This document shows, one piece after another, positions 12,606-51,820 of a stretch of 64,000 bases of DNA (its first letter is position 1; every line of letters starts with the position of its first letter). A model generated the notes under the pieces. The model was not told the DNA's origin. It ran no database searches and saw only the letters and a program-made list of their open reading frames with translations. Source of the DNA: Paraspadella gotoi (Eukaryota > Animalia > Chaetognatha); NCBI GenBank assembly GCA_051294375.1, contig CM119271.1, forward strand, positions 10,729,376 to 10,793,375. The letters are read 5' to 3'. The position numbers and the translations under genes are program-made.

Positions 12606-14771
12606 ATTCTTTCTCTCGTTATCCCTATCTTAAAATTTACTCAAGTTTAAATTTTACAGTGAAATTTCTTTTGGTCCCCGATTTGGCTTCGTTTTTACAG
12701 TTTAACGTAATATATTTACATAAGTATTAATCTTGCTTTAATTTCTCGTTCCTAAATCTGTTCGAAGTTAGTTTCATTCATTTTTGAAGTCAAGGTACAT
12801 CCTTAAGACTCAATATATCTGCTACAAACTAAATAATTTTGTATTGTATATAATAATATTAATAATATTGTACGCACGGTTTTACAAGATCTTAGGATAG
12901 GGGTGAACCCTAAACTTATGGTCAGATTCTTTGTCCCGAGTTTTTGACCGGTCGAATCCTCTCTTTCTTTCCCTAGGGACAGTTTTCGTTGGTCAAAATG
13001 ACCACCGACCACTATGACCACTTGACCAGTGACCAGTGTCATTCTTGTGAGAGACGCTTGAGATGTTAGAAATAATTTTTTACGGCATAAATTATTTGAA
13101 AAAAAAGTAAACTTACCTAGCGATATTACCGATTAGTATCTGAGATGAGATTACTTTGCATAAACAACTACATAAAAGATCTGACTATATGCATTATGCA
13201 GTTATGCACAGAAATCTTATTACGAAACATATTTTAATGTTACAATTATTCCCTTTTTGCCGTATCTGATTAACTGATTACCGCTAAATTACCGTACGCA
13301 GATCCGACGTTGTTTGCTCAAACTTGTTTTCATTGCACGTCACTTGTTTATTTGGCGCAGTTTTTGCACATTAGCTAACGAATTTAGAAGTTTTCAAATC
13401 TGATACCTAGTCAATTAATCATTTGATTCCAGTTTGCTTGCTTTTTTTGTAGTTACAAAAAAAACCAAAAACCTTTCCAAATGTTCTCATAAAAATTTAG
13501 CAAGGAGTTGCATTTGAATTTAAATTCTTCTTTGTTTACTTTTACTATCAATCAGCCATGTCATAAATTTTTTTGTGTGGTTATCTTGTTATATTTGATT
13601 TCTTTTGAAATATATGTGAATACTGAATAGCATACCCCTGTGTTTATTTTTTTTATGGCAAGGCGATTAAGTTACCAAGACGTTAGTAGGGTGGTTACTG
13701 GTTAGGGTTAAGGGTGGCAGGGGTAATATTCAAAAAAACATTCTTTTTTCACAAAAAAATATTTTTTTTGTTTGTGTTCATAAGCAGAAAAAAAATTACC
13801 GACAGTGAAGATAAAATTTTTCCCCACAAGTTTCTTGGGATAAAAGTTTAAAAAAAACCCAAGAAAATGCATAAGAGAAAAAGGAAGATAAGATTAACAT
13901 AAATTTTCTTCGGGTTGGCAAAATGCTCTTTTGTTTTGTCTCTATTTCCGCCTCGATTCTCTCATCGGCAGAAATCCGCACGATCCTTCTGTTCTTTCTG
14001 AGAAATAGTGAGAGCCGATTCTACTCGGCCTCCTTCATGGCGTGAAATTGATGGCATAAGCGTTGAGTTACCATTCTTTCCAAATCCAATTCTCTCATAA
14101 ATAAATTCCCAGTTATTCCTAACATAGTGTTTATTCAATTTGTAATGTATTTAAAGAACCGCTGTACAGTGTACTCTTCGAGTGTTTATGAAGATTAGCG
14201 AACAATAAAATATTATCCAAAGCGTTCACGTAATAATTCGTGATATGTGTTTATACAAGACTTTTCCATGAATAACAGACAAAATGTCAGAACAAAAATT
14301 GCATTTACAAAAGCACGGTAATCCCGCATTCAAGTTGCTGGTAATAGTAAAATCTCGGTTACAAAACTTTCCGGAGCTTTGTGGATAATTAAATAATCGA
14401 TAAGGACTCACTATGACTGAAATACATAAGCTAGAATAACAAATGCCCGAGTGCCGAATAACTAAAGCGTAATTGATACATTACAGACAAAAATCGTATT
14501 CACACAGACATCAACTGATAGCTAGGTTACACTTTCGGGATTCCGTGTATAATATACTGTATATGCTTTGCGTTTACAGTTCAATCTACTTACGCATTAC
14601 AAGTGTGAAACTAAACGTATCATGCTCACAACATTCTGACCAAAAAGCTTTGCACGGTCAAGATCACGTTAAATAATCCAAATGGCATAAATAATAATAA
14701 TAATTAAATATGCTCGTACCAAGTAATTCGACAAATCTTCGCAGCGCAGTCGACTTATTCTTTGACAGACG

Positions 14772-17700
14772 TTACTCTCTGAATTTCGCGACCACCAGTT
14801 TGGGATTGAGAACGACTTCCGGGATCTTCAGCGAAGGAAAGGAGAATCCCTTAGCGCCGCCGCTGTCGAGACGTTGGGCGAAATCCGAGTCGACTTCCGC
14901 GTATTCGTTGCCGGAGTCGCTCTCGGTGTAAGTCTCGTAGGCCGGCTCTGGAATTTGAGGGAAATAAAATAATAATTAGAGAGATGCGATTGCGGCGCAA
15001 CGCATTTGAGATGAAGCGATCGATCGACAACCGTCAAGTTTAAGATATTACGTTAGTTGCATTGTGTAAGCTCGACGTGTTTTTAGTACAATTATGAAAC
15101 ATAAAAATTAAATGATTTATTAATTTTTATCACTTTATAAAGAATTAATATAAATATTTAAAACAAACTTAACTTTTTGATAATATGATTATATATTTTA
15201 TCAGCATTTAAAAATACTTTATTTTAATCCTAATTACAATTATATTAAATATTTATAATTAAAAAAATTATTTTAGGAGTAGGAATGACCAACCGAAAAG
15301 TGACTTAATTAGTTGGTTCTCGACGCAACTAGAAAGACGGACGAAGGTCTATATCAGCCGCATCTCGATCGATGACGCCGATGACAAAAAAGAAGCGACC
15401 ATCTGCATTCGAATCCGGAATCGTTGCACGAAACCAAACGCTTTCATGTACCTCGAAACTTTCTCCGATGTCTGCAGAAAATGATTCCTATGACGACGAT
15501 GATGACGATGATGACCAGAGTAACAGCGACGGCGACGATGGCGGTTTTGGAAGAACGTCGTGGCGGTTTCGAGGCTGAGGAACGAACAAAATGGCAATTG
15601 TTTTAGCTTCTTCATAGATGTCAGCATCGTCAAACGTTTTTATCAATAATTTAGTAAAATACTCGATTTTTACTACCTGGACTTTTCACTTCTATTTCCT
15701 TGAGAGCCATGTCAGTGCCTGATAATTAATTTAAAATTTGATCAAGTCGTAGGGTTGTTTATTTAAAAGATTATTTGGACAATTTAATAAATACGAGCAG
15801 ATGAAAAAATCGTACCATCCGGCGCCGAAAACATAACTTGTCCATTCTTCTGCTGGGTCTTTAACTTTTCTACATTCGCGTCGGAGTTAACCTAATATTA
15901 TTAATGAATTATATTGGTGACATGAAAGTTATCAAATTAAAAATGTCACCTTTGACATACTTTGTTCGTAAATTTTCTCTCGCCCATCTTTACCTTGAAG
16001 GAAACAATAACTGATCCAGGTTCAACGGACATATTATAGAGCTGATGGACAGAAACTTCCAAGCGTCTAGCGACCTGTCATTGATAGAGTCAAACGAGTT
16101 AAATCTTTGTTTAAAACTATCGAATTGTTTTCACCTGAATCACACTTCACTCACTTGAGGTTTAATGTGCGTGATAAAACTATCTTTGTCAGTAACAACG
16201 TTGGCATATTCCGCAATTAGAATTAACTTAATATCCAAAAGATTTGCCGGCGGTGGAATGGTTGAGGGCGGCGACACTAATGTACATTGTGCAATGTACG
16301 ATGAGAATGTTATAAAATGTAACTTTGTATTTAAAACGTAATTCAACAACTCGTACCTTCCGTGCAATTGTCACCTATCCAACCCTGAGCGCAAGTACAA
16401 ATGAACAATCCCGGAACGTGCAATCCCACAGTGCTCGAGCATGTACCTCCGTTCGCGCACGGGTTTGGATTGCACACTGGTTTTTCTGAAGGTCGTTAAA
16501 AAATATTAAGTAAATTCATGGTTTTGCTTTCTCAAATATGGAAGTCTGGACATTGCTGTCAAATGAGACATTCAGATCTTATTTTTATTTTTTTTTAGAC
16601 AGTTTAATATGGAAATATGGAAGTATTTTCGAAAAGTGTCCAATTTCAGATTGATTCGAAATTAAATAAGTTAAATAAGATTAGGTTAAACTTAAAGATT
16701 AAATTAAAGAATTGGTTAGGGATTAAAGTTAGGGTTTAAGCAATGAGGTTAGTGATTAGGATTATGTTAGTTGTTAGGGTTAGGGCTAGAGATTAGGTTA
16801 AGATTTTAGTAAAAAAATTAATGTTAAAATTAAATTAATGTTAAAATTAAATTCCTGGAATTAAAAATAAAAATTGAGCGCTTTCCAAAAAATAGCGCCA
16901 ATAAGTTCCGAAAAAAAAACGTTTGTTAAGAAGTAAGAGCCTACCAAACAAAAATTGTGGAACTTACCTCTTCCGCAGGTCGGTCCCTCCCACCCTCGAG
17001 CGCAGTTGCACTCAAACCGGGCACCAACATTGCTGCAGGATCCTTTATTTTGACAAGGGTTCGAGTAACAATGATCGATCGCTGTAGGTTTTTAAATTGA
17101 ACACGCTTAACGTTTAACGAATAATATTTTCATTTTTAAGACTATGAATATTCTTTTTTTTTTATTTACGTTCAGAACAGTTGGTTCCTTCCCATCCAAC
17201 TGCGCAAGAACAGTTGTAAGAGGATATAAAGTTGTTGCAAGTTGCGCCGTTCAAGCATGGATTCGTCTCGCACAAGTTAATTTCTTAGAAATCGAGAAAT
17301 GTCAAATTTAATTAATTAATTACGAACCGCAAAAAAATAGGCAATTTTGCATAAACTTTGTCGGGCTCGGGAATCATTATTTTTTAAAGTTTACGACACG
17401 AAAAAAAAAATCGCAAAATCTAGTTTAATACTTATTATTTTTCTCTCTTTTTTTACAGACATATAATTGATTGTTTCATTCTTTAAAATGTATATACTAA
17501 ATGCCCTTTGTGTATATGAATGAATTTTAAAAAATGAGCTCACTTTTGTTGCAAGTCAAATCCTCCCAACCGAAAGAACACAAGCATTTGAACATCTTTT
17601 TTTCGGTGTAGCAAGTTCCTCCATTCATGCAGGGGTTGGACTGACACGCAACGCTTGTAGCTTTGTTATCGTAAAGTAAGGAGGTAAGTATTATTAATTA

Positions 17701-20399
17701 TTTAAATATTATCATTTTTGACAGACTAACTTACGAAGGGAACAATTTTCGCCGCGCCATCCTCCCAGGCAGGAGCAAAAGTAATCGTCTGCCAGATCGA
17801 AACACGAGGCTCCATTGGTGCAGGGAGACCACGTCATGCAGATGTTAAGCGATTGATAACCTGGAAAGAGAATGAAGAATATAGGATCACAATGCATCGT
17901 GATGTTGCAAGAAAAATAATTCACTTTCTTCTTGATTTTTTAAATGGCTTTCTCTATCTGGTTTTTTTCTATTTTCTCTCTCTTTATTTTCTTTCTTTTC
18001 TCTTTTGTCTTTTCTTTTCTCTTTTTTCTCTTTTTTTTTTCTCTTATTTATTTTCTTTTCTTTTCTCTTTTTTCTTTTCTTTTCTCTTTTTTCTTTTCTT
18101 TCATTCTTTCTTACTAGTTCTTTTGTTATTGCCTTCTGTCTCTGTTTATTTCTTGTTTTTTCTTATCTCCTTCTTTCTCTCTTTCCTTGCCTTACATCCG
18201 CCCAAGACTTCACTCCCCCTTTTCTCACCGTAAATAATATTCCTCGCCTTCTGTCCACTAACGATCGCCCTTTGCACGGATTCGTTCCTCAATCCAATCT
18301 CGAACAATCCCCGCTGATGCTCGGAATCCTTGGCCGCCGACAACGAGGCGCCCCACTTGACGAGCAACTCGACCACCGGCGGCAAACGGAGCCAAATCGT
18401 CATCCTCAAAGGAGTGTCGCTCTCGTTGGTCCTCGGATCCACGAAGGCCCCTTTCTCCAGCAAAAATGTGGTCATCCTCAGGTATCCCTTCCAACTTGCT
18501 TTGTGCAACGGAGTCTCGCCGTGACCGTCCGTAGTGTTAATGTTTGATCCTTTGGATAGAAGGGTTTTAACGACCGGCAGATGGTTGTAGACGGCGGCGA
18601 ATTGCAACGCCGTCGACCCACCCTTCGTTTCCAAATCGATTTCGGCTCCCTTCGCCAACAAAAACTCGATAATGTCCAGGAATCCGCGGCCAGACGCTTG
18701 ATGCAAAGCCGTTAGCCCCTCGTTGTTGACGGCATTTACATTGGCTCCCTTTTCGACCAAGAGCGTGGCGCCTTTGATCGATCCCTTGCGCGCCGCGTCG
18801 TGCAATGGCGTATCGCCCCACTTGTCCCTAGCGTTGACTTCGGAACCGCTGCGCAAGAGAAGCTCAACCATTCGGTCTTGGCCCCACCATGCTGCCAGAT
18901 GCAATGCAGTCGCGTTGGCGGCGTCCGCTAAATTGACGTCAGCTCCTCTGGCGACGAGAGCGTCGACGATGTCGAAATGACCAACCCGAGAAATGGCACG
19001 AAGCAAAGGAGATTCACCGTTTCGATTCTGTGCGTTCAACTCGGCTCCTTTGTCCGCTAGAAAGACGGTGATGTTTAAATATCCTTTGAAGGTCGCGTCG
19101 TGAAGCGGCGTGTCTCCCCATCGATCCCTCGCTCTCACGTCGAACCCATTCTCCACGAGGTACTCGACCATCTCCAAGTGTCCCCTCCAGGCGGCGTAGT
19201 GCAGCGCAGTTTGTTCGTTGTCGTTCTTCAAATTCGCCGTCGCGTTGGCCTCCACGAGGATTTTAGCGATGATCCTCGAATCGTTCCACGCGGCGTCGTG
19301 AAGCGGCGTTCGTCCTTTGAGGCTCGTGTCGACGTCGGCGCCGACCGACGCCAGATACGCGACGGCGTCGACTTTGTTGTAGATGACGGCGACGTGCAAG
19401 GGACTCGAACCCGTGACGTCTTTGATCTCGAGATCGGCGCCACGGTCGACGAGCAACTTGGCGACTTTGACGAAGCCTCGATAGGCGGAGAAGAAAAGCG
19501 CCGTCTTGTTCAGATGGTCGACGGCGTTGATGGAGGCGCCGTTGTTCAGCAAGACGGAGACGATGGACTTTCGATCGGTGAAGGCCGCCAGATGCAGCGC
19601 CGTCCATTGGTCCTCGTCTCTTTGGTTCGGATCGACGCCGGACGCCAGCAGATACTCGATGACGTCCATCTTGCCGTAAGTGGCCGCGTAGTGAAGACAA
19701 GTGAAGGAATAGTGGAGTCGATCACGGGCGGCGTGAACCTCGTTCGCGCCGAACGTGTGAGCCAGTTTCTTCACGGTGGTGACTATGCCTTCTCTGCAGG
19801 CGGTCATCAGGAGGTTCACGTCGAGCTTGGGGGGGGGGGGAAGGGCGAATTTTGATGTTTGTGGTTTTTTTTTTTTTTTTTTTAAAGAATTATGGCTTAA
19901 ATTTCTACTGTTTAATTCATAAGAAATTGTTACAACCAATATAGAAATCAGTGAGAAGGCCCTGGCGTAGGGGGGGGGGCTAATCTTGGATAGCTCTCAT
20001 TACAAACATGTTTTCAGCTTAAGATATAGTTTCTTTAAAATAAGTTGCTAACAAAATTTACCATCGCGTTAGAATCGTGGACGAAAATTCCAAGGAAGCA
20101 GATCAGCACCTGAAGTTTAAAAAGTAAACATCGTATGAAAGTAAAAATGAATATAGTTTCCCGTTTAAATTTGTGTTACTTTTATTAATCATGTAAACTG
20201 TCTTATTCAAAAAAAAAAATTGGATTTCATAAGATTTAATACCAATTTCGTGGTGAGTACAAAAGAAAACTTTTTTTTTATACACGAACTTTCAAATCAA
20301 CAAAAAATAAAGGGAAATACAATAATGGATTTTGTATATGAATTTTGTATATTTGATGTGAATATATTACAAAAATCTTACTTTGATTCGGAGGTCCAT
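14772..20399 (-). CDS. Gene B: signal peptide, ~15 ankyrin repeats, 5 EGF, SEA, TM, Tyr-motif tail receptor
   Basis: Exon 20382-20399 (MDLRIK) plus exon 20062-20109 ([16 protein letters not shown]) splice in phase 0 to the ankyrin exon 18229-19825. Five phase-1 EGF exons lie at 17862-16358. SEA exons contain PGSVIVSFK (~16003-16017). The TM exon reads [29 protein letters not shown] (~15452-15575). The last exon, ~14772-14948, reads EPAYETY...EYAEV...AKFRE*. Confidence 0.85.
16615..16900. repeat. Intronic MITE-like repeat with degenerate TTAGGG-like internal repeats
   Basis: TTAGGG/TTAGGT-like units at 16680-16800. Weak inverted ends TATTTTCGAAAAGTGTCCAATTT / AAATTGAGCGCTTTCCAAAAATA. Confidence 0.4.
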
Positions 20400-20587
20400 A
20401 ATCACGACTAGTATCTTGTGGGATAATTTAGAAAAAAAGCATCTTTAAAAACATAGTCTTTTTTCAAAACATATTGTACTAATTTTTGTTTTACATCAGC
20501 ATGTTCGCCAAAAAGATCGATGATTCTTAAATTTTGTAACTACTTTGGCTTCAACCATATATGCGATGCTGTGTGTCAAACAATTGC

Positions 20588-20609
20588 ATGAGAGAGAGAG
20601 AGAGAGAAT

Positions 20610-20666
<57 letters not shown>
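20588..20666. repeat. (GA)n microsatellite
   Basis: Direct reading. Confidence 0.95.
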
Positions 20667-20671
<5 letters not shown>

Positions 20672-20874
20672 GGGACCCAAACCAGTTTTTTCTTACGTGT
20701 CGAGTATAGGGTTTGAGAGTTTCGAAACGAAAAAAAAAAACAAAAACGGGATTTTATTCGGTCACGCGAATCTGAGACATCGAAGGTGGACAAAATTTGT
20801 CATTTGTTCTTATTCGATACTTACCTTATTTCGCGGGACGAAAAAGCCAAAAATAGAACGAAGGGTTTTCGAGA

Positions 20875-21068
20875 AAAAGACAGAAACCGGCGATGAAAAG
20901 ACAGAAACCGGCGATGAAAAGACAGAAACCGGCGATGAAAAGACAGAAACCGGCGATGAAAAGACAGAAACGGGCGATGAAAAGACAGAAACCGGCGATG
21001 AAAAGACAGAAACCGGCGATGAAAATACAGAAACCGGCGATGAAAAGACAGAAACCGGCGATGAAAAA
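20875..21068. repeat. 21-bp minisatellite (GAAAAGACAGAAACCGGCGAT) x ~9
   Basis: Near-perfect tandem units with no unique spacers. Confidence 0.95.
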
Positions 21069-21210
21069 CGTAGAATATCAATATGAGGGAAAATTTAAGA
21101 ATTATTTATTTTATTTTTACAGGGTCGAATTATTTATTCCATCATTTATAGAAAGATTGTAAATTCAAATATCATTGGTCAGTGGTCACTGGTCACATAT
21201 CATTGGTCAG

Positions 21211-22237
21211 TAGAGCGTTCAAAGATAACAAAATATAAGATATTAAATTCCATTCATAATTATTTTACTGTAATAAGGTCTTAAGAATTCGATGGTGATG
21301 ACCATTTTTTTGCATAATTTCATCTTTCTTTTCGGAAATGACGATTTTTAATGTATATAAAATGCTAATAAAATAGGGCAAACATTATAAGTTATGATAA
21401 ATAAAATTATTAAAAATTTATAAAATTTACATGAGCTTTTAAAATATAAAAATAAGGACCTATAAAAATATTTTGATAAATTTATTTCTCAATTTTATGT
21501 TTTATTAAAAGTTATTTAGCTATATTTATTAATAAATATGAATAAAAATTAGGCTAAGTTAAAAAATAATAATTTTTAAAAAATTATCCCGGATTCGCAT
21601 TCCTTGCAAAAGTTATATAAGAAAATGTAATTTTTATTTTAGAAAATTATGTCATTAAGTTGGTCAAAATTAAGTAAAATTGAGGTTTTTGAAGAGAGAG
21701 ACGGTGTGGTAAGGTCGCCTTCCAAACTATAATTTTAAGCCAAAAATAGTAAAATTAGACAAACATTTTTAACATTTTTAACCAACTTAATGAAAGAATT
21801 TGTTAAAATGGATTTTACTTTCTTATATCAACTTTTGGCAAGGAATTCAAATCCGGTTTTAAAATGTCAAAATATTTATTTTTTCACTTTAGCCTATTTT
21901 TAACTAATAATTATTAATAAATATAGCTAACAAGCTGTTAATAAAATATAAAATTTGTAAATAAACTTACCGAAATATTTTTATGGATCTTTATTTTCAT
22001 ATTATATAACCTAAATATGACTTTTATAAAATTTTAATAATTTTAGTTTCTTAAACTCTACAATGTTTGCGCCATTTTAATAGCACCTTATATGCTTCAA
22101 AAATCGCCGCTGGCGACAAGGAAGATGAAACTATACCAAAAAATGGTTATCATCATCGAATTCTTCAGACCTTATTACATTAAAACAATAATGAATGGAA
22201 TTACATATCTTATATTTTGTTATCTTTGAATGCTCTA
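21211..22237. mobile_element. hAT-type foldback MITE
   Basis: Ends TAGAGCGTTCAAAGATAACAAAATATAAGATA / TATCTTATATTTTGTTATCTTTGAATGCTCTA. The whole element is an imperfect palindrome. A perfect 8-bp TSD, TTGGTCAG, lies at 21203-21210 and 22238-22245. Confidence 0.9.
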
Positions 22238-29476: not shown

Positions 29477-32400
29477 TCATTTTTGAAACTTGGCGATGCT
29501 GTATCTGGTCGAAAGAACAACTCCGGGAGATTTTCGAATGCTGTTGTTGTTGTTGTTGTTGTTGTTGTCGTCGTCGTCGATGGAGGCCGCGAAGTCGACG
29601 TTTATTTCTTCGTACAATCTGTTCGTCTGTCCTTCATGTCCGAACATCTCGTAAGGATGATCTGTGATTCGTCAAAATGTGAAAATTTGCCAAATTGTCA
29701 CGTGAAGAAAATGGAATATGAGAATCCAATTACTAAACAACTAAAAGCCATAATAATAAGTCTTTTTTAATTTAATTTTAGAAAAGAGTTCGAAAGTATT
29801 TTTTTCCCAAATTTTTCAGATCTTAAACCTAATCCATAATGTCTAACCTAATCCTTAATCCTTTACACATAATCCCTAACCAAATCATTAACCAAATCCA
29901 TAATGTCTAACCTAATCCTTAATCCTTTACACTGAATCCCTAATTAAATCATTAACCTTAAGAATCCTTAGCCTTAATTTCTAACCGGCTTTCTTTTCCC
30001 AGTGTGTTGTAGTTTGTTTTTTCCCCAGAATTTAATTTTAACCATAATATTTAACCTAAATATCTTTTTAAACTTTTAAATCTAACCTTCATCCTTAACC
30101 CTAATCCTAAACCCTTTCCCTAATTTCTAACCCTAACCGCTAAACCTAAATGATAATCCCTAACCTAAATCCTTAACCAAGTCCCTAACCTTAATCACTA
30201 ACCCTTAACCTCACCTAATCTTTAATCCAATCTTTAACTAAAAAAAAAAAATCTAATTCCTAATTTAAGGTAAAATGGGGCGTTTAGTTTTATTTAATTT
30301 TATTTAATTTAATTTTTTTTGTTGAAAATTATCGTCACTTTCCCCGGTTTACCTCGATTCTTACTCCTTCGCCTCCTCAAGCAGACGATTCCCAGAATGA
30401 GGACGATGACCACGAAAACGACCACGCTGACCACAGCGGCGATTGTGGTCGTGGAGGAAACAGCCGCCGGTGGTTCTGTAAAAGTCGCTGGAAAAAATAA
30501 AATGGATCAAAATATTAACCTTTCGCTTCTCCCCCGGAAAAAAGTATTGTCTTGTGGCGGTATATTCACACCGCCTCACATCTACCATCCTTCAGCCAAT
30601 ACCATTGGCTCAGAGGGGGAACGCACCATCCCAATCGTTGCGTTGGATCCACAGTCCTTACGACTTCCCTCTGCGTTAGCAAAGCGAGTCCGTCCTAGGG
30701 TAACCGCGCCAGTGACTGGAGGCGTCACTGAAGGTCGGAAGCCCACAACAGTGAGAAGCCCCATCCTAATGGGCATCACAGGCAACCCGACTGTTGCCTT
30801 AGTCTACACATTCTGGTACATGTGTCATTAATCACAAAATTTAATATTCAAGTTTACCTCGTATTTTTACATCGATCTGCTTCACGAGCATTACAGCACC
30901 TGAGGTAAACGTAAACGTTTGAAAAGTAACATTTTGAAAAAATGTTATTATTAAAAATTTGTACCATAAGGAGAAGTGAGCTTGACTTTTCCTTCTTTTA
31001 TCTGGGATTTGAAACTTTCAATGCTCGCGGATTCGCCAACCTGAAAATCATTAAGTTGTAGCAGTTGTTATTACTGTTATTACGCGCGTTGGAAAATAAA
31101 GAAAGCAAAATAAAACATCTTAACGTTGTTGATATTAAGTTACCTTGAACCTAACAATCACTGATCCGGGTAGAACCTCGACGTTGAGTACTTCATTATC
31201 AGAGATCCCCAATGATGTGGCAATCTTTAAAGTGAAAAATAACAAAAAATGTAAAAAAAAAAAGTCATAGCATATTCTAACTTTAAAAAATTTTAGAGAC
31301 AAGCCTGGGGTTTGAGATGAGATATAAATTCTTCTTTATTTCGCACAACTTTAGTAAAATTTGCGTCGAGTGTTAATGTAACATCGATGAGATTTTGCGT
31401 TGGTTTCTTAACTGTAATGTAATATGTAAACTAACGAAGAATTCAAAGATAAAATTTTACAATAAAAGACCTCAGTATTTTATTTTTATTCGGAAATAGA
31501 GGTCAAATTTAAAAACAATTTCTGTATTATACCATATTCGCAAGTTTTTCCATCCCAACCCGGACGACAAGAGCAATTAAAGGAATGCCCAAGCTTCAAG
31601 CACGTCCCTCCATTTTGACAAGGGTTCCAAAGGCAGAGGTTAATTGCTGCGGAATAAATCACTGAAACTTTATAAAGGCAATAATCACATAGAACCAGCT
31701 CTAATGAGCTTATTAGTTTTTCTTAATAGTTTGAGAACTATAGTTATTTTACAAAATTTAGCAAATTAATATTTTCTCTATTCTATTCTTAAAAAAGAAA
31801 TTAATTTACCATCTTCACAAGTTAATCCCTCCCATCCAGCGAGACAAGAGCAATTGTAAGAATGTTCATAATTGAAACATGTTCCCCCATTCTTGCAAGG
31901 GTTGGAGGAACAGTGATTTATCGCTGTCAAGCAAAACATGTATTTATTGGGTGCCTTTTCTTGGAGACACAGATTATCTGGGTACCTTCGGAACAGTTTT
32001 GTCCCTCCCATCCAACGGTACAGGAGCAATTATAGAAACTCTTGAAGTTGTTACAAGTTGCTCCATTTAAACAAGGGTTTTTGATGCACCAATTACGTTC
32101 TAAAAACATTTTCATTGTTCAATAACCTAAAATATTTTCAATAAAAGACGTTTTTCGTTAAATTACCATTTTCACATGTTTGTCCCTCCCATCCAGGAAG
32201 GCATGAGCAACTGAATGAATCACCAAGATTTAAGCATAAGCCCCCATTTTTGCAAGGTTGTGAGGAACACTGGTTAATCGCTTGGGAACAAATCATAATT
32301 TTAACTGCACATAAATTTACTAAATTGTTAAATATAATTTTTTAATATTAATACCTTCAGAACAATTTTGCCCCTTCCATCCAGTAGAGCAAGAGCAGTT

Positions 32401-40933: not shown

Positions 40934-43900
40934 ATCTCTCACTCTTTCTTTATGCACATAATTTGTTTCAAAATTCACTAACTTTTTTAAAATTGCTGAA
41001 TGAAGGCTTTGTAGTTAAGCCGAAACATGTCCGTTTTTACTAAAAAATAAACATCGTTGTTTGAAAATTCATTCAAACTTTTCTTAATAAGTATTAGCAC
41101 AACGTAAAAGAAAGGAGTTATACGCACAATTTTTTTTGTTGAAAATTATCGTCACTTTCCCCGGTTTACCTCGATTCTTACTCCTTCGCCTCCTCAAGCA
41201 GACGATTCCCAGAATGAGGACGATGACCACGAAAACGACCACGCTGACCACAGCGGCGATTGTGGTCGTGGAGGAAACAGCCGCCGGTGGTTCTGTAAAA
41301 AGTCGTGGAAAAAATAAAATGGATCAAAAATATTAACCTTTCGCTTCTCCCCGGAAAAAAGTATTGTCTTGTGTATATTCACACCGCCTCACATCTACCA
41401 TCCTTCAGCCAATACCATTGGCTCAGAGGGGGAACGCACCATCCCAATCGTTGCGTTTGGATCCACAGTCCTTACGACTTCCCCTGCGAAGCAAAGCGAG
41501 TCCGTCCTAGGGTAACCGCGCCAGTGACTGGAGGCGTCACTGAAGGTCGGAAGCCCAACAACAGTGAGATGAAGCCCCATCCTAATGGGCATCACAGGCA
41601 ACCGACTGTTGCCTTAGTCTACACATTCTGGTACATGTGTCATTAATCACAAAATTTAATATTCAAGTTACCCTCGTATTTTTACATCGATCTGCTTCAC
41701 GAGCATTACAGCACCTGAGGTAAACGTAAACGTTTGAAAAGTAACATTTGAAAAAAATGTTATTATTAAAAATTTGTACCATAAGGAGAAGTGAGCTTGA
41801 CTTTTCCTTCTTTATCTGGGATTTGAAACTTTCAAATGCTCGCGGATTCGCCAACCTGAAAATCATTAAGTTGTAGCAGTTGTTATTACTGTTATTACGC
41901 GCGTTGGAAAATAAAGAAAGCAAAATAAAAACATCTTAACGTTGTTGATATTAAGTTACCTTGAACCTAACAATCACTGATCCGGTAGAACCTCGACGTT
42001 GAGTACTTCATTATCAGAGATCCCCAATGATGTGGCAATCTTTAAAGTGAAAAATAAACAAAAATGTAAAAAAAAAGTCATGAGCATATTCTAACTTTAA
42101 AAAATTTTAGAGACAAGCCTGGGGTTTGAGATGGAATATAAATTCTTCTTTATTTCGCACAACTTTAGTAAAATTTGCGTCGAGTGTTAATAGTAACATC
42201 GATGAGATTTTGCGTTGGTTTCTTAACTGTAATGTAATATGTAAACTAACGAAGAATCAAAGATAAAATTTTACAATAAAAGACTCAGTATTTTATTTTT
42301 TCGGAAATAGAGGTCAATTTAAAAAACAATTTCTGTATTATACCATATTCGCAAGTTTTTCCATCCCAACCCGGACGACAAGAGCAATTAAAGGAATGCC
42401 CAAGCTTCAAGCACGTCCCTCCATTTTGACAAGGGTTCAAAGGCAGAGGTTAATTGCTGCGGAAATAAATCACTGAAACTTTATAAAGGCAATAATCACA
42501 TAGAACCAGCTCTAATGAGCTTTTAGTTTTTCTAATAGTTTGAGAACTATAGTTATTTTACAAAATTTAGCAAATAATATATTTCTCTATTCTATTCTTA
42601 AAAAAGAAATTAATTTACCATCTTCACAAGTTAATCCCTCCCATCCAGCGAGACAAGAGCAATTGTAAGAATGTTCATAATTGAAACATGTTCCCCCATT
42701 CTTGCAAGGGTTGGAGGAACAGTGAATTTATCGCTGTCAAGCAAAACATGTATTTATTGGGTGCCTTTCTTGGAGACACAAGATTATCTGGGTACTTCGA
42801 ACGTTTTGTCCCTCCCATCCAACGGTACAGGAGCAATTATAGAAATCTGGAAGTTGTTACAAGTTGCTCCATTAAAAAGGTTTTTGATGCACCAATTACG
42901 TTCTAAAAACATTTTCATTGTTCAATAACCTAAAAATATTTTCAATAAAAGACGTTTTCGTTAAATTACCATTTTCACAATGTTTGTCCCTCCCAATCCA
43001 GGAAGGCATGAGCAACTGAATGAATCACCAAGAATTTAAGCATAAGCCCCCATTTTTGCAAGGTTGTGAGAAACACTGGTTAATCGCTTGGGAACAAATC
43101 ATAATTTTAACTGCACATAAATTTTACTAAATTGTTAAATAATAATTTTTTTATATATAATACCTTCAGAACAATTTTGCCCCTCAATCAGTAGAGCAAG
43201 AGCAGTTGTAGAAATTCCTAAAGTTATACAAGTTCCTCCATTCAGGCAAGGATTATATAGGCAGAAATTTTTTTCTGTGTGAGAATTTTGATTTATTATT
43301 AAAAAAATCAACATTTTTTTAGTTTTATTTTTAAGATTAATTTATTTTAACACTTTATTTAATATTTAACACTTTATTATATTTTAAACTTTAATATTTT
43401 ACACTTTAATTATATTTTTAAAATTTTTCAAAGGATATTACAGTCTCACAAGTTGGTCCCTCCCATTCGGATGGACAAGAGCAATTAAAAGAAGTCAAAT
43501 CATTAAAACATGATCCTCCATTTTTGCAAGGGTTTGAATAACAGAGATTTATGGCTGAGTAAAAAAAATTTGTGGTTAAAATTCAAACCTTCATGTGTGA
43601 CTATTCATAAGTTTACCTACTGAAACAGTTTTGCCCTTTCCAACCACTGGCACAGGAGCAATTGTAAAAGCTTTTATATAGTTATGACAAGTTGCACCAT
43701 TGAAACAAGGATTGGAGGTGCACCAATTCTGATCTGATTGATAAGATATGATTTAATGGTATAAACTTTATTTTAAATATTTAACATAATTGAGAAAGTT
43801 TATGATTGAAGGAATTAACCCTTTTCACAAGTTGGTCCCTCCCATCCAAATAGGCAAGAGCAATTAAAAAAAAATTTGTAACTAGAGCATAATCCTCCAT

Positions 43901-46900
43901 TTTTACAAAGGGTTTGAATAGCAGTTTGTCAATCACTGTAAAAATGCTAATTTTTTGTCTACTTTTGTGATAAGAATAGCTAGATTATTACCTTCAGAAC
44001 AGTTTTTTCCTTTCCAGCAGGAGAACATGTACAATTGTAGAAGTTCTTGAAGTTGTTACAAGTGGCTCCATTTAAACAAGGATTAGACTTGCAAAATTAT
44101 TCTCTAACATTGGATTTAAAAATTGGTTGATTGATCATATTCTAGGTTATTTTTATTTAATAGATATAAACAAAAATACATTCTTTTAAAACCTTAATTT
44201 ACAATCTCGCAGGTCGGTCCCTTCCAGCCAGAAAGACAAGAACAGTTGAATGAATCTCTGCATTATAACAAATCCCTGATTTTTGCAAGGATTGGAGTAA
44301 CAATGATTAACAACTGTTAAGTAGAACATGGTCTCTTTTAGCAAACATGAAGAGGTTTTTTTTGAAATATTCAGATTTAAATTTTTGTACCTTCTGAACA
44401 GTTTTGCCCCTCCCATCCAATAGCACAGGAACAATTGTAAAAGCTCTTAAAGTTGTTGCATGTAGCTCCATTTAAACAAGGATTTGAGATGCACCAGTTT
44501 AGTTCTAAAATGTTCCTCTTAGTATCTTAATAAAAAACAATATAATATTACTAAATTTATTTACCTCTCTCACATGTTGTCCTTCCCATCCAGAGATGCA
44601 AGAGCAATTAAAAGAATTTATATAGTTAGAAACATGATCCTCCATTTTTACAAGGGTTTGAATAACAGTGATTCATGGCTGAGAAACAAAACATTTTTTT
44701 GTGTTGAGACATCAAACACAGCTTGCACTACAATTCATGAGTTACTTCTGACAATTTGGCCTTCCCATCCACTGGCACAAGAGCAGTTGTAATAGTCTTG
44801 AAGTTGTTACAAGTTGCTCCATTGAAACAAGATTAGAGATGCACAAATTTTGTTCTGATTTAAGGTGAGAGGATATTACATTTTAAAAAAATCTTTACTA
44901 TTGATGTTACTCACCATCTCACAAGTAGTCCTCGCCATCCAGAGAGGCAAGAGCAATTGAAATAATTTTTATAGTTAGAGCATACTCCTCCATTTTACAG
45001 GGATTTGGGTAACAGTTGTTTATCACTTAAATAAATAAAGTTAAAACATTTTTAGCTCTTTATCTGATTACAATTACAACTTATAGATCTAAAAATGAAT
45101 ATTACCTTTAGAACAGTTTTTTCCCTTCCAGCCAGGGGAGCAAGTACAATTGTAGAAGCTTTTAAAATTGTTGCAAGTTGCTCCATTCAAACAAGGATTA
45201 GACTTGCACAAATTAGTTACTAAATAGAAAACTTTCTTTAATAATACATGTCTAAATTTTAAACAAAGGTTTGAATAAACAGTGTTTTTTGACTATAAAT
45301 AAATATTGTTGTCAGTTAAAAAGAATAAAAATTTCATGGTACCTTCTGAGCAGTTTTGGCCTCCCATCCAACAGTACAGGAGCAATTATAAAAGCTCTTG
45401 TAATAGTAACAAGTTGCTCCATTTAAACAAGGATTTGAAATGCACCAGTTTTGTTCTAAAATAATTTTTTTTTGTTATTCATTACTATCTATTAACAGCA
45501 ATAAAATGAATTACTATACTTCTAGTAATGATAAAAATAGTTCTTTTATTTTATTTATAAGAAATTTACTTTATAAAAATATTTACCTTTTTCACATGTA
45601 GGCCCCTCCCATCCAGGAAGGCATGAACAATTGAATGAATTAAATTATCAGAGCATAAACCTCCATTCTTGCAAGGATGAGATGCACAATGATTTATGGC
45701 TAAAGAAAAAACAAATTAATAATTGGGTCTTTACAAGTTTGTATTCTCCATCAATACCTTCAGAACAATTTGTCCCTTCCATCCATTGGAACAAGCAAAT
45801 TGTAGAAATTCCTAAGTTGTTGCAAGTTGCTCCATTCAGGCAAGGATTGGATTTGCAGAGATTTCTTTCTGTATTAAATTGTATTCAAGGAATAAAATTG
45901 CAAGTTTTGATCAAGTTCTTGGGCAGATATGTGTTTTAGATTTTTCTGAAAACCATGACAAAGTAAATTACTGTTTTCACAAGTTGGTCCTTCCCATCCA
46001 GAGATGCAAGAGCAATTAAAAGAATTTATGTAGTTAGAACATGATCCTCCATTTTTGCAAGGGTTTGAGTAACATAAATTTATTGCTGAAGAACAAAATT
46101 TTTTTTGTATTGAGACATCAATCACTTCTTGTGCTACAATTCTTGAGTTTACCTTTTGAACAATTTTGGCCTTCCCATCCACTGGCACAAGAGCAGTTGT
46201 AATAGTCTTTGAAGTTGTTACAAGTTGCTCCATTGAAACAAGGATTGGAGATGCACAAATTTTGTTCTGATTTAAGGTGACAGGATATTAAATTTAAAAA
46301 ATATATTTTCTATTGATGTTACTCACCATCTTCACAAGTTAGTCCTCGCCATCCAGAGAGGCAAGAGCAATTGAAATAATTTTTATAGTTAGAGCATACT
46401 CCTCCATTTTTACAGGGATTTGGGTAACAGTTGTTTATCACTTAAATAAATAAAGTTTAAACATTTTTTAAGCTCTTTATCTGATTACAATATACAACTT
46501 ATAGATCTAAAAATGAGTATTACCTTTAGAACAGTTTTTTCCCTTCCAGCCAGGGGAGCAAGTGCAATTGTAGAAGCTTTTAAAATTGTTGCAAGTTGCT
46601 CCATTCAAACAAGGATTAGACTTGCACAAATTAGTTACTAAATGAGAAAACTTTCTTTAATAATACATGTCTAAATTTTAACAAAGGTTTGATAAACAGT
46701 GTTTTTTGACTATAAATCAAATATTGTTGTCAGTAAAAAGAAATAAAAATTTTNNNNNNNNNNNNNNNNNNNNNNNNNCATGGTACCTTCTGAGCAGTTT
46801 TGGCCCTCCCATCCAACAATACAGGAGCAATTATAAAAGCTCTTGTAATTGTAACAAGTTGCTCCATTTAAACAAGGGTTTGAAATGCACCAGTTTCGTT

Positions 46901-49900
46901 CTAAAAGAATTTTCTTCTTATTCAGTACTATCTTTACGGCATTTAAATTAATTACTGTATTATTTCTAGTAATGAAAAGAATAGTTTTTTTTATTTTTAT
47001 TTATAAGAATTTACTTTATAAAAAAATATTTACCTTTTTCACATGTTGTCCCCTCCCATCCAGGAAGGCACGAGCAATTGAATGAATCAAAATTATCAGA
47101 GCATAAACCTCCGTTCTTGCAAGGATGCGATGCACAATGATTTATGGCTAAAGAACAAAACAAATTATAATTGAGTATTTACCTAGTTTGTATTCTCCAT
47201 CAATACCTTCAGAACATATGGTACCATCTCCATCATTGGAAGCAATGGTAGACAATTGAAGAAATACCTAGTTGTGCAAGGCTCATTCAGTGCAAGGATA
47301 TGGATTTGCAGAGATTTCTTTCTGTATTAAATTGTATTCAAGGAAAAAAATCGCAAATTTTGATCAAATAATGTGTTTTAGATTTTTCTGAAAACCATGA
47401 CCAAGTAAATTACTGTTTTCATAAAGATGCAAGAGCAATTAAAAGAATTTTATATAGTTAGAACATGATCCTCCATTTTTGCAAGAGTTTGAATAACAGT
47501 GATTTATGGCTGAGGAACAAAACATTTTTTTTGTGTTGAGACATCAAACACAGCTTGCGCTACGATTCATGAGTTTACCTTCTGAACAATTTTGGCCTTC
47601 CCATCCACTGGCACAAGAGCAGTTGTAATAGTCTTTGAAGTTGTTACAAGTTGCTCCATTGAAACAAGGATTGGAGATGCACAAATTTCGTTCTAATTTG
47701 AGGTGACATGATTCAAATATTAACAAAATAAATCAAAAAGTTTACTGTTTATATAACTTACCCCTTTCACAAGTTGGTCCCTCCCATCCCGACAGGCATG
47801 AGCAATTAAAATAATCTTTATTATTAAAGCATAACCCTCCATTTTTACAAGGGTTTGATTGACAATTGTTCATCACTGTAGATAAAAGATTTTATAATTT
47901 AAATTTAGTGGTACTGATCTACGAGCCAATAAGAAAAATAAAATAAAATTCAGCTCCTTGTATTTTGATGCTAGTGCGGAGTACAATAAGTATTCCCCGA
48001 TCTAATACTTAAGGGAGTGGTCTTTTCATACAATTGAAACATTCTTTGAAATATTTTCCACTTCATTGATAGGGAAGCCAGGTACTCTGGGAGTGAATAA
48101 ACGAGACTGTGAGAGAGTCTTGATTGAAAGCTTGCAGGGACCTGCTATGTCATTATCTTGTAAGAGTGATGGAGGCCTTAAACCACCAAAGCCTGTCCAA
48201 AGTCAGGGGCAAGATAGCTTATTTATTAAATGAATGGATAATTTTATATTGGTTGTACCAATTTCATAAGAACTTGTCTGACTAACTTTTAAATATCATG
48301 AGCTGTATTAATTTATTTATAATCAGGATATTTGAAATAGTATTAGAGTTAACCGGATTCTTTTGTTAAAAATATTACCTTCTGTGCAATTATCTCCTGT
48401 CCAACCAGAGGAGCAAGTGCATATGAACAAAGCAGGAATGTTTAAACCAATAGTATTTGAGCAAGTTCCTCCATTAGCGCAGGGATTTGGCTGGCACACT
48501 GGTTTTTCTATAATTTTTAAAATAATGATAAATAAATAACATAAAAATAGAATTTTGTCGATTTTGAACTTTGTTATTGTTCTTTTTGTGTTTTTTTTTA
48601 ATACAATATTTTTTTTCTTTTTGACATCATTAATTTCATATTTTAATGTAATGTATGTATTTATAAACATATATCTTAATATACTGTATATTTGACAGAT
48701 CCGTTTTTAAGCACTCACCATTTTCACAAGTTGGTCCCTCCCATCCAGAAAAACAAGAACAATTAAATGTATCCACATTATTGTAGCACGATCCCCCATT
48801 TTTGCAAGGGTTTGAATAACAATGATCAATTGCTATGACGAAAAATTTGAATGCATTGCTGCTCTTATAACGAGATCAATTTTACAGCAAGATTACCTAG
48901 AGAACAGTTTTCTCCCTCCCATCCACGTCCGCAGGAGCAGTTGTAAAAGGTAACAAAATTTTGGCACGTTGCTCCATTGAGACAAGGATTGGATACGCAC
49001 AAGTCTTTTTCTAAACCCAAAAGGAAATATTGATCTATTATTAAAACTAGTTTGATTATTATAATTATTATTATTATTATTATTATTATTATAATAACCT
49101 TCGCTGCAATTGAATCCCTTCCACCCAAAGGGACACAGGCATTTGTAAGAATTGTTTTCAGCGTAGCAAGTTCCTCCGTTTAAGCAGGGACTGGACTGAC
49201 ATTCAACGCTTGCTGTTTTGATATAACCATATTAATAATAAAACATCGTAGTCAACAGTTTTTCCATGGCATTTGATACTTACGTTGGGAACAGTTGTCG
49301 CCTTGCCATCCGCCCAAACAGACGCAAATAAAACTATCGGAAAGATTAACGCATGTCGCTCCATTCATGCAAGGCTTTGAGCTGCACGCGTTTGCCGGGA
49401 GATAACCTGCATAGATTTTTGAATAAGAAATATTGGGAATACTAATGTAGTAAAGGAGGTAGAAAAGTTTTTATACGTATTATTTGATTTTGTAGAAAAA
49501 TTATAGGTACCTCCTTACCATAGATTTTGTTCCGTATATCTTGTCCCCTTATGATGGCGTTTTGAACTCCGCTATCTCTCAGACCAATTTCAAAGAGTCC
49601 CTCTTGATGAACAGATTGTTTCGCCGTAGCTAAGGATGCTCCCGATTCGATTAATTCTTCAACGATCAAAGTTAATCGCAACCGAATCGTCATTCTCAAC
49701 GCCGTTTCTCCCGCCAAAGTTTTGGCGTCGATTTCAATCCTACTCTCGATGAGAAATTTCGTCAGTTTTACGTAGCCCCTCGAGCTAGCTTTGTGCAAGG
49801 CCGTTTCCCCTTCCACATCGGTTGCGTTCACACGCGCCCCCTTTGATACAAGAAATTTCGCAAGCGTTAAGTCATCGTTAAATATCGCGAAGTGCAAAGG

Positions 49901-51820
49901 AGTCAAGTATTTTTCGTTTATCGCGTTTAAATTTCCCCCGTTATCCGCCAAGAGCTTCGCCATTTTTAAAGACCCTCGTCGAACCGCGTCGTGCAACGGA
50001 GTGTTTCCGATGTTGTTTCTCGCGTTCACGTCGGCTCCGCTCTGGATGAGAATCCCGGCAATATTTTCGCGATCCCACCCAGCGGCCAAATGCAGAGCGG
50101 TCTCGTTTGAATAATCAGCTAAATTGACGTCGGCCCCTCGTTGCACGAGAGCTGCCACAATATCAAAGCGATCGAATTGATTGATTGATAGATGCAGCGG
50201 AGTCCTCTCGTCGACCGTTCGCGCGTTGACGTTCGCACCATTGTCCAATAAAAAGACGGTCATGTTTAAAAATCCTCTGAATGAAGAATCGTGAAGAGGA
50301 GCGTATCCGTTATTGTCGACTGCGTTAACGTTCGAACCATTTTTGATCAAAAGTTCGGCGATGCTTTGATGATTCCACCAAGCCGCCATGTGCAATGCGG
50401 TTGCGTTAGATCGATCGGCTAAATTAACGTCCGCTCCACGATCGATCAAAACCCGAACGACTTCCACGCGACCCAACGTCAACGTCGCTTTCAGCAAAGG
50501 AGTTTCCTGTTTAAAATTTCGCGCGTCAATTTCCGCTCCGTTGTCCAATAAAAATTGGGTAATCTCGAGGAATCCCTTGAAGGACGAATCGTGCAAAGGC
50601 GAATCGCCCCATTTATCTCTCGCCCTCAAATCGAATCCGTTGTCGACGAGGTATTTCACGATATCCCGATATCCCATCCACGTCGAAAGGTGCAGAGCGG
50701 TTTGATCGTTTCCGTTCTTCGAGTCCTTTGTCGCGTTGGCTTCGACCAATTTTTTCACGAAGCTCGATCGGTTTCTTCCAGCCGCAAAGTGAAGCGGCGT
50801 TTGACCCTTGTCGTTTCTCGAGTCGACGACGGCGCCGATCGAGATCAAATAATCCAGAGTTTCCGACTGGTTCATAATCACCGAGGCAAAGAGCGGACTA
50901 AAGCCCGCGGCGTTCTTCAGCTCGAGATCCGCCCCTTCGTTCGCGAGTATTCGAGCCACTTTGGTGAATCCGTGAACGGCGGAATAGAAGAGGGAAGTTT
51001 CTTTGCGAACGTTTCTGGCATCAACGTCCGCTCCGCGATGGAGCAAATACTGAACCATCGTCTCTCGGTCGGTGAAAGCCGCCAAATGCAAGGCCGTCAA
51101 TTGGGCCGAGGTTCGTTGTTCTATGTCGACGCCCACGTCGAGCAGGTATTCCACCAGCGGTTGGTGACCGTAAGTCACGGCAAAGTGAAAACAAGTGAAC
51201 GAGTATAATTTGGGATAATCGGCGTCGAGCACTGCCGACGACCCGTACGCTTGGATGGCGAGTTTGACGTAGGCAACGTTGCCTTGGTGGCATCTTACCA
51301 TCAACTTGAAGACGTCCATCTGTTGTTTTAAATGGTTTTGTTATTATAATTAAACTTATATTTATAATAATATTATATTATAAGTATAATGATAATATAT
51401 ACTTTTTTATAAATATCGAACAATTTATTATTTATTATTGCAATCTTTCTTTGTGAAGAATAAGTAATAATTTAAAATTATGATCCAAGGTATATTTTCT
51501 ATTCTCGATTCTATTTTCTTGTCAAAAAGGGCAAGATAGCTTATTTATTAAATGAATTTTTATTATTGGTTGTACCAATTTCATGTAAAATAATTTGAAA
51601 GAACCTGCGCCGTTGAAGTCCCGACCAAGACAATAGAATGCAGACGAATAACTGAAGTTAAAAATTAAATGTATACAAAGTTTTAAATGAAATGTTGGAT
51701 AATATTGCTTTTTAACGATTATAATAAGTTTTTTATGTTGAAAAAATACTTAGAAAACTCTTTTTTTTATAAATACTATTTTTTTATTTTAAAAATATAT
51801 ACCTTCATTCCAAGATTCAT
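29477..51820 (-). CDS. Gene A: signal peptide, ~17 ankyrin repeats, ~33 EGF, SEA, TM, Tyr-motif tail receptor (assembly interrupted by duplicated and inverted segments at 34-44.8 kb)
   Basis: Exons: 51803-51820 (MNLGMK); 51605-51651 (signal exon, 47 nt); ankyrin exon ~49519-51319; ~21 EGF exons at 49410-44745 continuing with ~12 more at 33885-31533; SEA with PGSVIVRFK at 31153-31167; TM exon ~30352-30487 ([26 protein letters not shown]); last exon DHPYEMF...LYEEI...AKFQK* with stop at 29477. Confidence 0.8.
29820..30265. repeat. Intronic degenerate (TAACCC/TAATCC)n low-complexity repeat
   Basis: Many CCTAA/CCCTAA/CCTTAA units, including an internal ~70-bp duplication. Confidence 0.7.
30552..30798 (-). 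other. Second copy of the structured ~270-nt intronic element (in gene A, sense to host)
   Basis: The reverse complement aligns end to end with 5583-5852. A lower-quality duplicate lies at ~41365-41615. Confidence 0.6.
34005..37980 (+). repeat. Inverted duplicate of gene A EGF exons (mirror of ~44790-48440)
   Basis: Exons and introns are near-identical to the reverse complement of 44.8-48.4 kb, with scattered indels. Begins right after an N gap. Confidence 0.85.
37982..39238 (-). repeat. Further duplicate of gene A EGF exons (copy of ~45015-46197)
   Basis: Direct identity. Folds back on the preceding inverted segment. Confidence 0.8.
40989..41038 (+). ncRNA. Candidate minimal hammerhead ribozyme of Penelope-like retroelement type
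   Basis: CTGA(A)TGA-a-GGCTT-loop-AAGCC-GAAAC-AT-GTC followed by AATAAA, at the end of a tandemly duplicated ~500-bp unit (40040-41000). The core has one extra A, within an indel-rich segment. Confidence 0.45.
41130..44770 (-). repeat. Direct, indel-rich duplicate of 30315-33979 (gene A TM/SEA/EGF exons)
   Basis: Colinear identity including introns, with many 1-nt indels that break the frames. Confidence 0.85.
47945..48270. repeat. ~330-bp dispersed repeat (SINE/MITE-like)
   Basis: Core CATTGATAGGGAAGCCAGGTACTC...GCTTGCAGGGACCTGC...GGGGCAAGATAGCTTA...TTGTACCAATTT also occurs at 34180-34810, 52775-52983, 56305-56650 and 61250-61625, with fragments at ~29435 and ~51527. Confidence 0.85.

Follow-up and report, generated by a model that had tools for sequence, protein, structure and literature searches.

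The window analysed here is a stretch of 64,000 nucleotides from the chaetognath Paraspadella gotoi (assembly GCA_051294375.1, contig CM119271.1, positions 10,729,376 to 10,793,375 of the forward strand), and contains two paralogous genes, designated gene A and gene B, in which ankyrin repeats are encoded ahead of EGF modules and a single membrane span. Gene B is comprised of 14 exons on the minus strand (20399-14772), with GT-AG edges throughout and a 960-amino acid (aa) frame without internal stop. It encodes, in this order, a leader, 15 ankyrin repeats that all fall within a single exon, five EGF modules, a SEA-like segment, one transmembrane (TM) helix and a 66-aa tail. The introns in the window are short and AT-rich, and the exons are GC-richer. 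An earlier reading of the letters of this DNA, hereafter the original prediction, had proposed this order of signal peptide (SP), ankyrin (ANK), EGF, SEA and TM parts, and all 14 exons were found at, or 1-2 bases from, the positions it gave. The SP-ANK-EGF-SEA-TM architecture of gene B is confirmed, with the signal peptide taken as predicted and the last ectodomain part worded as "SEA-like" because single exons gave no SEA profile match.

Gene B and its transcripts

Transcript evidence consists of the contigs of one run, X1, presumed to be RNA, which were aligned to positions 13500-21000 of the window; uncovered stretches were counted neither way, and one joint was discarded at repeats. The features of gene B and the evidence for each are as follows.

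20382..20399, minus strand: exon 1, ATG and a 6-codon basic n-region, phase 0 (sequence; 18 nt as in gene A)
20062..20109, minus strand: exon 2, hydrophobic h-region with an S-x-A cleavage-type end, phase 0-0 (sequence and shuffle test)
18229..19825, minus strand: exon 3, 1597 nt, ankyrin (Pfam, model; 3' junction in X1 contig record 3)
17735..17860, minus strand: EGF1 exon, phase 1-1 (Pfam; both junctions in X1 contigs)
17544..17660, minus strand: EGF2 exon, phase 1-1 (Pfam; X1 contigs)
17170..17283, minus strand: EGF3 exon, phase 1-1 (Pfam; X1 contigs; best PDB matches Notch1 and DLL1 EGFs)
16968..17081, minus strand: EGF4 exon, phase 1-1 (Pfam; X1 contigs)
16357..16485, minus strand: EGF5 exon, phase 1-1 (Pfam; X1 contigs; 33/42 identical to the fifth EGF of gene A)
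16155..16276, minus strand: SEA-like exon 1 (exon 9), Pro-rich linker, first strand and helix (5' junction in X1; conserved in gene A; no Pfam match)
15994..16074, minus strand: SEA-like exon 2 (exon 10), predicted autoproteolysis motif GSVIV, present in both paralogues (junctions not among the RNA-supported ones)
15816..15891, minus strand: SEA-like exon 3 (exon 11) (3' junction in X1; conserved in gene A)
15677..15718, minus strand: SEA-like exon 4 (exon 12) (both junctions in X1)
15452..15574, minus strand: transmembrane exon (exon 13), with basic stop-transfer cluster (19-residue Kyte-Doolittle hydropathy, KD19, 3.54; both junctions in X1)
14772..14947, minus strand: cytoplasmic tail exon (exon 14), coding for most of the 66-aa tail, with two conserved Tyr motifs and the stop codon (X1 record 2; alignment to the gene A tail)
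14159..14771 (at least to 14159), minus strand: 3' untranslated region (UTR) (X1 contig record 2; AATAAA at 14135)

The X1 contigs support nine of the 13 gene B junctions, that between the ankyrin exon and EGF1 included; all are GT-AG, and each is carried by one contig at a depth of approximately 6. Record 3 (825 nt) runs from the 3' end of the ankyrin exon through EGF1-5 into 31 nt of exon 9, the exon lengths summing to exactly 825, and record 2 joins exons 11-14 (SEA3, SEA4, TM and tail) and the 3' UTR. There is no X1 cover over exon 1, nor in the intron upstream of exon 3. The ankyrin-to-EGF splice in record 3 shows that the ankyrin exon does not form a gene of its own, left unspliced to the EGF exons, the outcome that the original prediction had named as speaking against it. 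At 14536-14538, record 2 has 31 additional letters in the 3' UTR compared with the window, an allele or assembly difference.

Leader, ankyrin block, EGF string and tail

The 22-aa leader encoded by exons 1 and 2, which precedes the repeats, opens with basic residues, continues with a hydrophobic core (KD9 3.17) and closes with small residues. A search of the 735 nt upstream, with criteria fixed when the candidate was already known, found three in-frame paths, two of them via exon 2, and at least one path was obtained in 5 of 300 dinucleotide shuffles. There is a strong case, drawn from the letters, that this two-exon signal peptide would direct the chain to the endoplasmic reticulum (ER) and leave the ankyrins, EGFs and SEA-like segment extracellular and glycosylated. 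The only membrane-length hydrophobic stretch of gene B is a 19-mer in exon 13 (aa 874-892, KD 3.54), followed by a basic cluster, and the same is found in gene A; the best hydrophobic 19-mer of the ankyrin block reaches only 1.24, and no membrane span lies between the ankyrins and the EGFs. EGF modules with disulfide bonds need the secretory pathway. Since there is no membrane span between them and the ankyrins, the latter are predicted to be extracellular, an argument independent of the leader alone because the EGF disulfides and the absent intervening span also imply it. The outward ankyrin solenoid that had been predicted is thus the most economical topology, given the ankyrin-EGF splice and the lack of an intervening span, and we consider it very probable that the ankyrin block is extracellular.

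Exon 3 matches Pfam Ank_2 at 5e-146, and has 14 regular repeats flanked by an N-cap repeat and a helical C-cap, with eight sequons and two Cys. An alignment-based model of this exon, which replaced a single-sequence fold (predicted local distance difference test, pLDDT, of 51.8), displays 15 helix pairs and capping helices with a mean pLDDT of 94.2. The eight sequons are found in 532 aa (shuffle mean 3.4, reached by 60 of 5000 shuffles), while the ankyrin block of gene A has eight in 600 aa (shuffle mean 4.6, reached by 374 of 5000). With 1.5 (B) and 1.33 (A) sequons per 100 aa, both blocks lie above all 35 named animal cytosolic ankyrin regions used as controls, and these densities are reached by 6 and 10, respectively, of 181 other fetched proteins. 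The two Cys of each ankyrin exon occupy the same positions in B and A, and are fewer than in any of the 35 animal controls.

The concave face is rich in Trp. At three positions of this face, which we take to be those randomised in designed ankyrin repeat proteins (DARPins) and which were chosen after the repeats had been viewed, Trp is found in 8/42 (B) and 5/48 (A) cases, versus 0.3% of 372 animal and 3.2% of 2045 other control repeats; nine of the ten Trp of the B ankyrin exon, and all five of A, are at groove positions. A Trp-lined groove suggests that the ankyrin block may bind a ligand, presumably an extended one. Identity between the paralogues is 35/98 for the groove, 20/66 for the convex face and 72/98 for the framework.

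Exons 4-8 each encode one six-cysteine EGF module in phase 1-1, with PF00008 above cut-off and the O-fucose consensus present in 5/5. The following exons 9-12 encode approximately 105 residues without cysteine, containing GSVIV; the coding pattern for this motif has three matches, all at the SEA-like exons of both paralogues (0.05 expected). The region upstream of the TM helix has a short Pro-rich linker of approximately 10 aa only, and no Pro/Thr/Ser tandem-repeat mucin region. According to the excerpts of PMC6954182 and PMC9564314, MUC1 self-cleaves between G and S of GSVVV in its membrane-proximal SEA, GPR110 and GPR116 have GSVVV or GSIVA, and the SEA of Notch is instead cut by furin. For gene B, self-cleavage of the SEA-like segment at the G-S of GSVIV therefore appears likely from the motif. 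The SEA domain assigned to it earlier is suggested by this motif, its membrane-proximal position and its conservation between the paralogues, and is weakened by the exon-wise scans mentioned below.

Conservation between genes A and B extends over all SEA-like, TM and tail exons: none of 300 shuffles reaches the score in five of the six exons, and one of 300 does so for a 13-aa exon; the EGF1 pair was left out of this paralogue exon comparison. Exon lengths of 81, 76 and 42 nt are equal in both genes. Two tyrosines in acidic context align between the tails (0/300 shuffles reach the score), and gene A has YEEI, the preferred motif of Src-family SH2 domains. The 66-aa tail has no match in a Pfam scan, with none to a catalytic domain, ankyrin, RAM or PEST. 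A canonical ITAM (the tyrosine-based activation motif found in immunoreceptors) follows the pattern YxxL/I-x(6-12)-YxxL/I; it was rejected for the tail, as the first of the two Tyr motifs, which lie 12-13 residues from each other, has Y/F at its end, and Pfam gave no ITAM match.

Gene A comprises the following parts.

51803-51820 (18 nt) and 51605-51651 (47 nt), minus strand: leader exons (sequence comparison with gene B)
49519..51319, minus strand: ankyrin exon, N-cap, 16 repeats and the same C-cap as gene B, to which it is 45% identical (BLASTP)
42351..49403, minus strand: approximately 30 EGF exons (tblastn), partly frameshifted and duplicated in the assembly
29480..31411, minus strand: SEA-like, TM and tail exons, the cleaner of two assembled copies

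The second assembled copy of the SEA/TM region (41128-42230) ends after the TM exon. All gene B exons downstream of the ankyrin exon have conserved gene A counterparts, and the 18-nt exon 1 and the hydrophobic exon 2 sit at the same places as in gene B. The paralogue of identical layout that had been predicted is thus present as to exon order, and departs from it in its approximately 30 EGF exons, a second leader exon one base short, and a duplicated and inverted assembly. A direct duplicate (30311-33979 and 41128-44768, 97% identical), an inverted copy (34493-37982 versus 48269-44767, 96% identical) and N gaps at 33980, 38111 and 46754 are found here, and the region 30311-48437 is visibly mis-assembled or contains collapsed haplotypes. 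For this reason the EGF number of gene A is uncertain, and a consensus error is a plausible source of the missing base in exon 2, which may also be a real lesion. In both assembled copies the first SEA-like exon of gene A seems to end in a GC donor (31305 and 42120, minus strand). The intron before the gene A TM exon contains a few hundred GC-richer bases (30500-30830 and 41300-41640, minus strand), possibly a mobile-element fragment, which are absent in gene B.

Proposed receptor, its origin and alternatives

The gene B product is likely a lineage-specific type I cell-surface receptor with its ankyrin solenoid turned outward. In the proposed mechanism, the signal peptide assembled from two exons would send the chain into the ER, so that ankyrins, EGFs and SEA end up outside and glycosylated. 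The concave ankyrin groove, with Trp and other aromatics, would capture an extended ligand, either a stretch of protein or a glycan, that a microbe or another cell displays, at a head-to-membrane distance set by the EGF string (five modules in B, approximately 30 in A). The SEA would cut itself at the G-S of GSVIV and, in the manner of MUC1, its two halves would stay joined until the head is shed by force. Clustering by the ligand would allow a tyrosine kinase to act on both conserved tyrosines of the tail (YEEI in A), and their phosphorylation would recruit SH2 proteins. For this full mechanism, combining ligand capture, SEA self-cleavage and phosphotyrosine output, we see a little better than an even chance. 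A broader proposal would make these genes a "natural DARPin" pattern-recognition family, with an outward ankyrin head for microbe or self, an adjustable EGF stalk, a force-sensitive SEA release and a phosphotyrosine output, clustered with a leucine-rich repeat (LRR)-kinase-ribonuclease receptor in an immune locus; it is tentative, and we would not expect it to hold as a whole.

Several observations weigh against the receptor interpretation. The X1 contigs do not show the junctions 20382/20109 and 20062/19825 (leader) or 16155/16074 and 15994/15891 (SEA), none of the contigs extends all the way from ankyrin to TM, and X1 is one run, presumed RNA. The acceptor of exon 3 is unusual, a poly-C tract with AAG. 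Exon 2 of gene A has 47 nt versus 48 in B, which puts its leader out of frame as assembled, and the ATG with which exon 3 of gene A opens could initiate a protein that lacks a leader. Exon-by-exon Pfam and PDB scans gave no SEA match. The sequon excess of gene A over shuffles is not significant, and most of the animal ankyrin controls are redundant vertebrate ANKRD28/52, two of 37 having been set aside because they matched the motif too few times. Low Cys content is also common in microbial ankyrins (the level of B is matched by 55/181 and that of A by 54/181 other proteins). The late choice of the groove positions in the Trp test counts here as well, and the groove shows no hypervariability between the paralogues (35/98 being not below the 20/66 of the convex face), nor any strictly kept site. 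The sequons had been described as conserved between the paralogues. Three of the eight are in register, which is near chance (approximately two expected; background N 14/31, S/T 32/59), and LN[I/M]TVF, which lies in a duplicated repeat of gene A, is out of register; sequon conservation was rejected as evidence for extracellular ankyrins.

Could the ankyrins be cytosolic after all, for want of a working signal peptide, or the transcript be rare or dead? The MisPred list (PMC2542381, supplement 4) counts ankyrin among the domains that are obligatorily cytoplasmic in Metazoa, and such an artefact would agree with leader junctions missing from X1 and a gene A leader out of frame. This explanation is very improbable in view of the ankyrin-EGF splice in a contig, the open frame, the retention of all exons and caps, of the EGF cysteines, and of TM and tail in two paralogues, and six-Cys EGFs that need the secretory pathway with no membrane span before the ankyrins. 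More serious, if still unlikely, is a reading with the same outward topology in which the protein is an adhesion, spacer or shed-decoy coat protein resembling transmembrane mucins, its ankyrin rod being structural or homophilic and signalling little. The membrane-proximal SEA-type cleavage motif as in MUC1, the greatly differing EGF numbers of the paralogues and a tail without catalytic domain (Pfam) would all suit a coat protein; the Trp-rich groove, the lack of a Pro/Thr/Ser tandem-repeat region, and two tail tyrosines kept with their acidic context between paralogues that are only ~45% identical would not. Compared with MUC1-type mucins and other SEA-TM proteins (GPR110, GPR116), gene B shares a membrane-proximal GS[VI]V-type motif, a single TM, a Tyr-bearing tail and predicted self-cleavage and shedding; it differs from the mucins in lacking O-glycosylated tandem repeats, in an ectodomain made of an ankyrin solenoid and an EGF string, and in a SEA-like segment that drew no SEA profile match on single exons.

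The original prediction had described the gene as a permuted Notch. Like Notch, gene B encodes a predicted type I membrane protein made from EGF, SEA-like and ankyrin modules, with the SEA-type part beside the membrane; its EGFs are of the Notch/Delta class, the best PDB matches of EGF3 being Notch1 and DLL1, and carry the O-fucose consensus. Notch/Delta-class EGFs occur in many extracellular proteins too, and the PDB ranking of EGFs favours chains rich in them. According to the excerpts of PMC2770060, the defining parts of Notch are LNR, EGF and ankyrin; LNR is diagnostic, the ankyrins are intracellular, and 3-5 ankyrin repeats are reported. Gene B, in contrast, has its ankyrins ahead of the EGFs with no membrane span between, and 15-17 repeats, in one exon, in genes A and B are not Notch-like. 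No LNR is present: there is no Cys from aa 752 through the TM, and no LNR, NOD or NODP match on the scanned exons. RAM and PEST are likewise missing, the motif is of MUC1 type with no furin loop, and the short Tyr-motif tail of 66 aa holds nothing to act in the nucleus and is too short for a transcriptional co-activator. The best PDB matches of the ankyrin exon are ankyrin-R/B, DARPins, NOMPC, latrotoxins and TRPA1, and no Notch chain is found in the best 60 of its 403 matches, in the best 60 of the 331 matches that a piece of six repeats gave, or among the Foldseek matches listed for the ankyrin block. A circular permutation that moved the Notch ankyrins ahead of the EGFs and kept a Notch-like regulated intramembrane cleavage is therefore extremely improbable.

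More likely, the receptor arose by exon shuffling that placed an ankyrin block free of introns behind a leader and ahead of an EGF-SEA-TM stalk that was already there. The exon anatomy suggests this origin, as the single ankyrin exon of 1.6 kb is flanked by leader exons in phase 0 and by EGF cassettes in phase 1-1. As a variant compatible with the receptor interpretation, the ankyrin exon may have been acquired horizontally from a bacterium or other microbe instead of from a retro-copied animal gene. An intronless exon of 1.6-1.8 kb amid exons of 40-180 nt would fit such a source, as would best single-alignment scores to unnamed, probably microbial proteins (31-38% identity), the low Cys content resembling microbial ankyrins, and the many apparently bacterial ankyrin proteins with signal-peptide-like N-termini. 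We consider it doubtful, as the third-position GC content (GC3) of the ankyrin exon (0.71) matches that of the tail exon (0.72), every match is at generic ankyrin similarity (relatives all 25-42% identical), and no donor was identified.

Extracellular ankyrins have soluble precedents. Alpha-latrotoxin is an animal protein whose long extracellular ankyrin solenoid engages receptors (excerpt of PMC13611351). The latrotoxins of widow spiders share with gene B a long ankyrin solenoid, which in gene B is predicted to be extracellular, and generic ankyrin matches, and differ as soluble pore-forming toxins without EGF, SEA or membrane anchor; gene B has no N-terminal pore-forming region, its PDB matches to latrotoxins are confined to the ankyrin part, and their similarity is below that of ankyrin-R/B and DARPins. 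Secreted ankyrin-repeat proteins are reported for oomycetes (excerpt of PMC11139960), and many fetched ankyrin proteins, apparently bacterial, begin with a hydrophobic, signal-peptide-like leader; they combine a signal peptide with ankyrin repeats, as is predicted for gene B, but are soluble and non-animal, and have no EGF-SEA-TM stalk or signalling tail. DARPins, among the best sequence and fold matches of the gene B ankyrins, are likewise curved repeat proteins that bind through an aromatic concave face. A curved solenoid ectodomain also serves as the binder in LRR receptors such as Toll-like receptors. From both, gene B differs in that its ectodomain is a natural ankyrin and not LRR, and it has no TIR or kinase. 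While latrotoxins and oomycete effectors provide soluble examples, we found none in which ankyrins form the ectodomain of an animal receptor.

When databases were searched for relatives, the C-cap queried against proteins of 932-2660 aa gave 20 matches among 58 candidates, vertebrate ankyrins in 19 cases and an unnamed protein in the remaining one, and no orthologue; against 1.84 billion representatives, its best 150 matches were all generic ankyrin proteins (28-42%), again without an orthologue. For the gene A ankyrin exon against proteins of 330-1050 aa, the best 120 of 5726 matches are at 25-38% and none has an EGF Pfam match. None of 299 fetched proteins combines ankyrin with an EGF pattern, and an Atlas search returned generic ankyrin clusters. 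The absence of an orthologue is weak evidence, because generic repeats crowd the match lists. No description of an ankyrin plus EGF receptor architecture was found in the accessible parts of open-licence PMC or bioRxiv articles, and the word "ankyrin" is absent from the main text of PMC3927609 and PMC5620054. For the "undescribed receptor class" announced for this gene, no described counterpart was accordingly found in these database searches or in those parts of the literature.

An ankyrin-on-EGF receptor breaks a domain-localisation rule, and represents a new architecture of known parts, known so far from two paralogues of one genome. Since ankyrin is listed as obligatory cytoplasmic, pipelines with that rule would flag gene B as a misprediction; the spliced contig and the paralogue support the gene despite the rule. 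If the topology is true, animals would have arrived independently at a surface-exposed ankyrin binder of the kind engineered as DARPins, and the parts of Notch would have been assembled a second time in another order. Gene B thereby raises the question of ankyrin ectodomains as recognition receptors of invertebrates, and of such genes having been filtered from annotations.

Other features of the window

Between genes A and B, on the same strand, lies a single-exon open reading frame (ORF) of approximately 1350 aa (23342-27397, minus strand) with a leader-like start, many LRRs and a weak membrane span. Its Pfam matches, LRR_8 (1e-44), a degenerate kinase (Pkinase, 1.5e-4) and Ribonuc_2-5A/KEN (4.6e-10, above cut-off), describe an LRR ectodomain joined to a kinase-ribonuclease of the IRE1/RNase L type. 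In the excerpt of PMC3710099, the fusions tabulated for KEN are with ankyrin, CCCH, UBI and BRCT, not with LRR, and an Atlas search with this ORF returned generic kinase clusters only. Just upstream of gene B, a 21-nt tandem repeat (20870-21070) and a 1-kb imperfect inverted repeat (21208-22240, 77%), likely a foldback element, were found.

At 7971-8468 (plus strand) an exon of a non-alpha nicotinic acetylcholine receptor subunit is present (Neur_chan_memb, 6.5e-21), with best matches to an unnamed protein (95%) and to Macrostomum and Diabrotica (75%). An ORF piece at 1257-1592 (plus strand), with one hydrophobic span, an acidic stretch, a YYY end and no Pfam match, probably belongs to a single-pass protein. 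The segment 55451-63012 contains two inverted gene copies that are 79-87% identical, and whose ORF pieces presumably represent a SAM-dependent methyltransferase.

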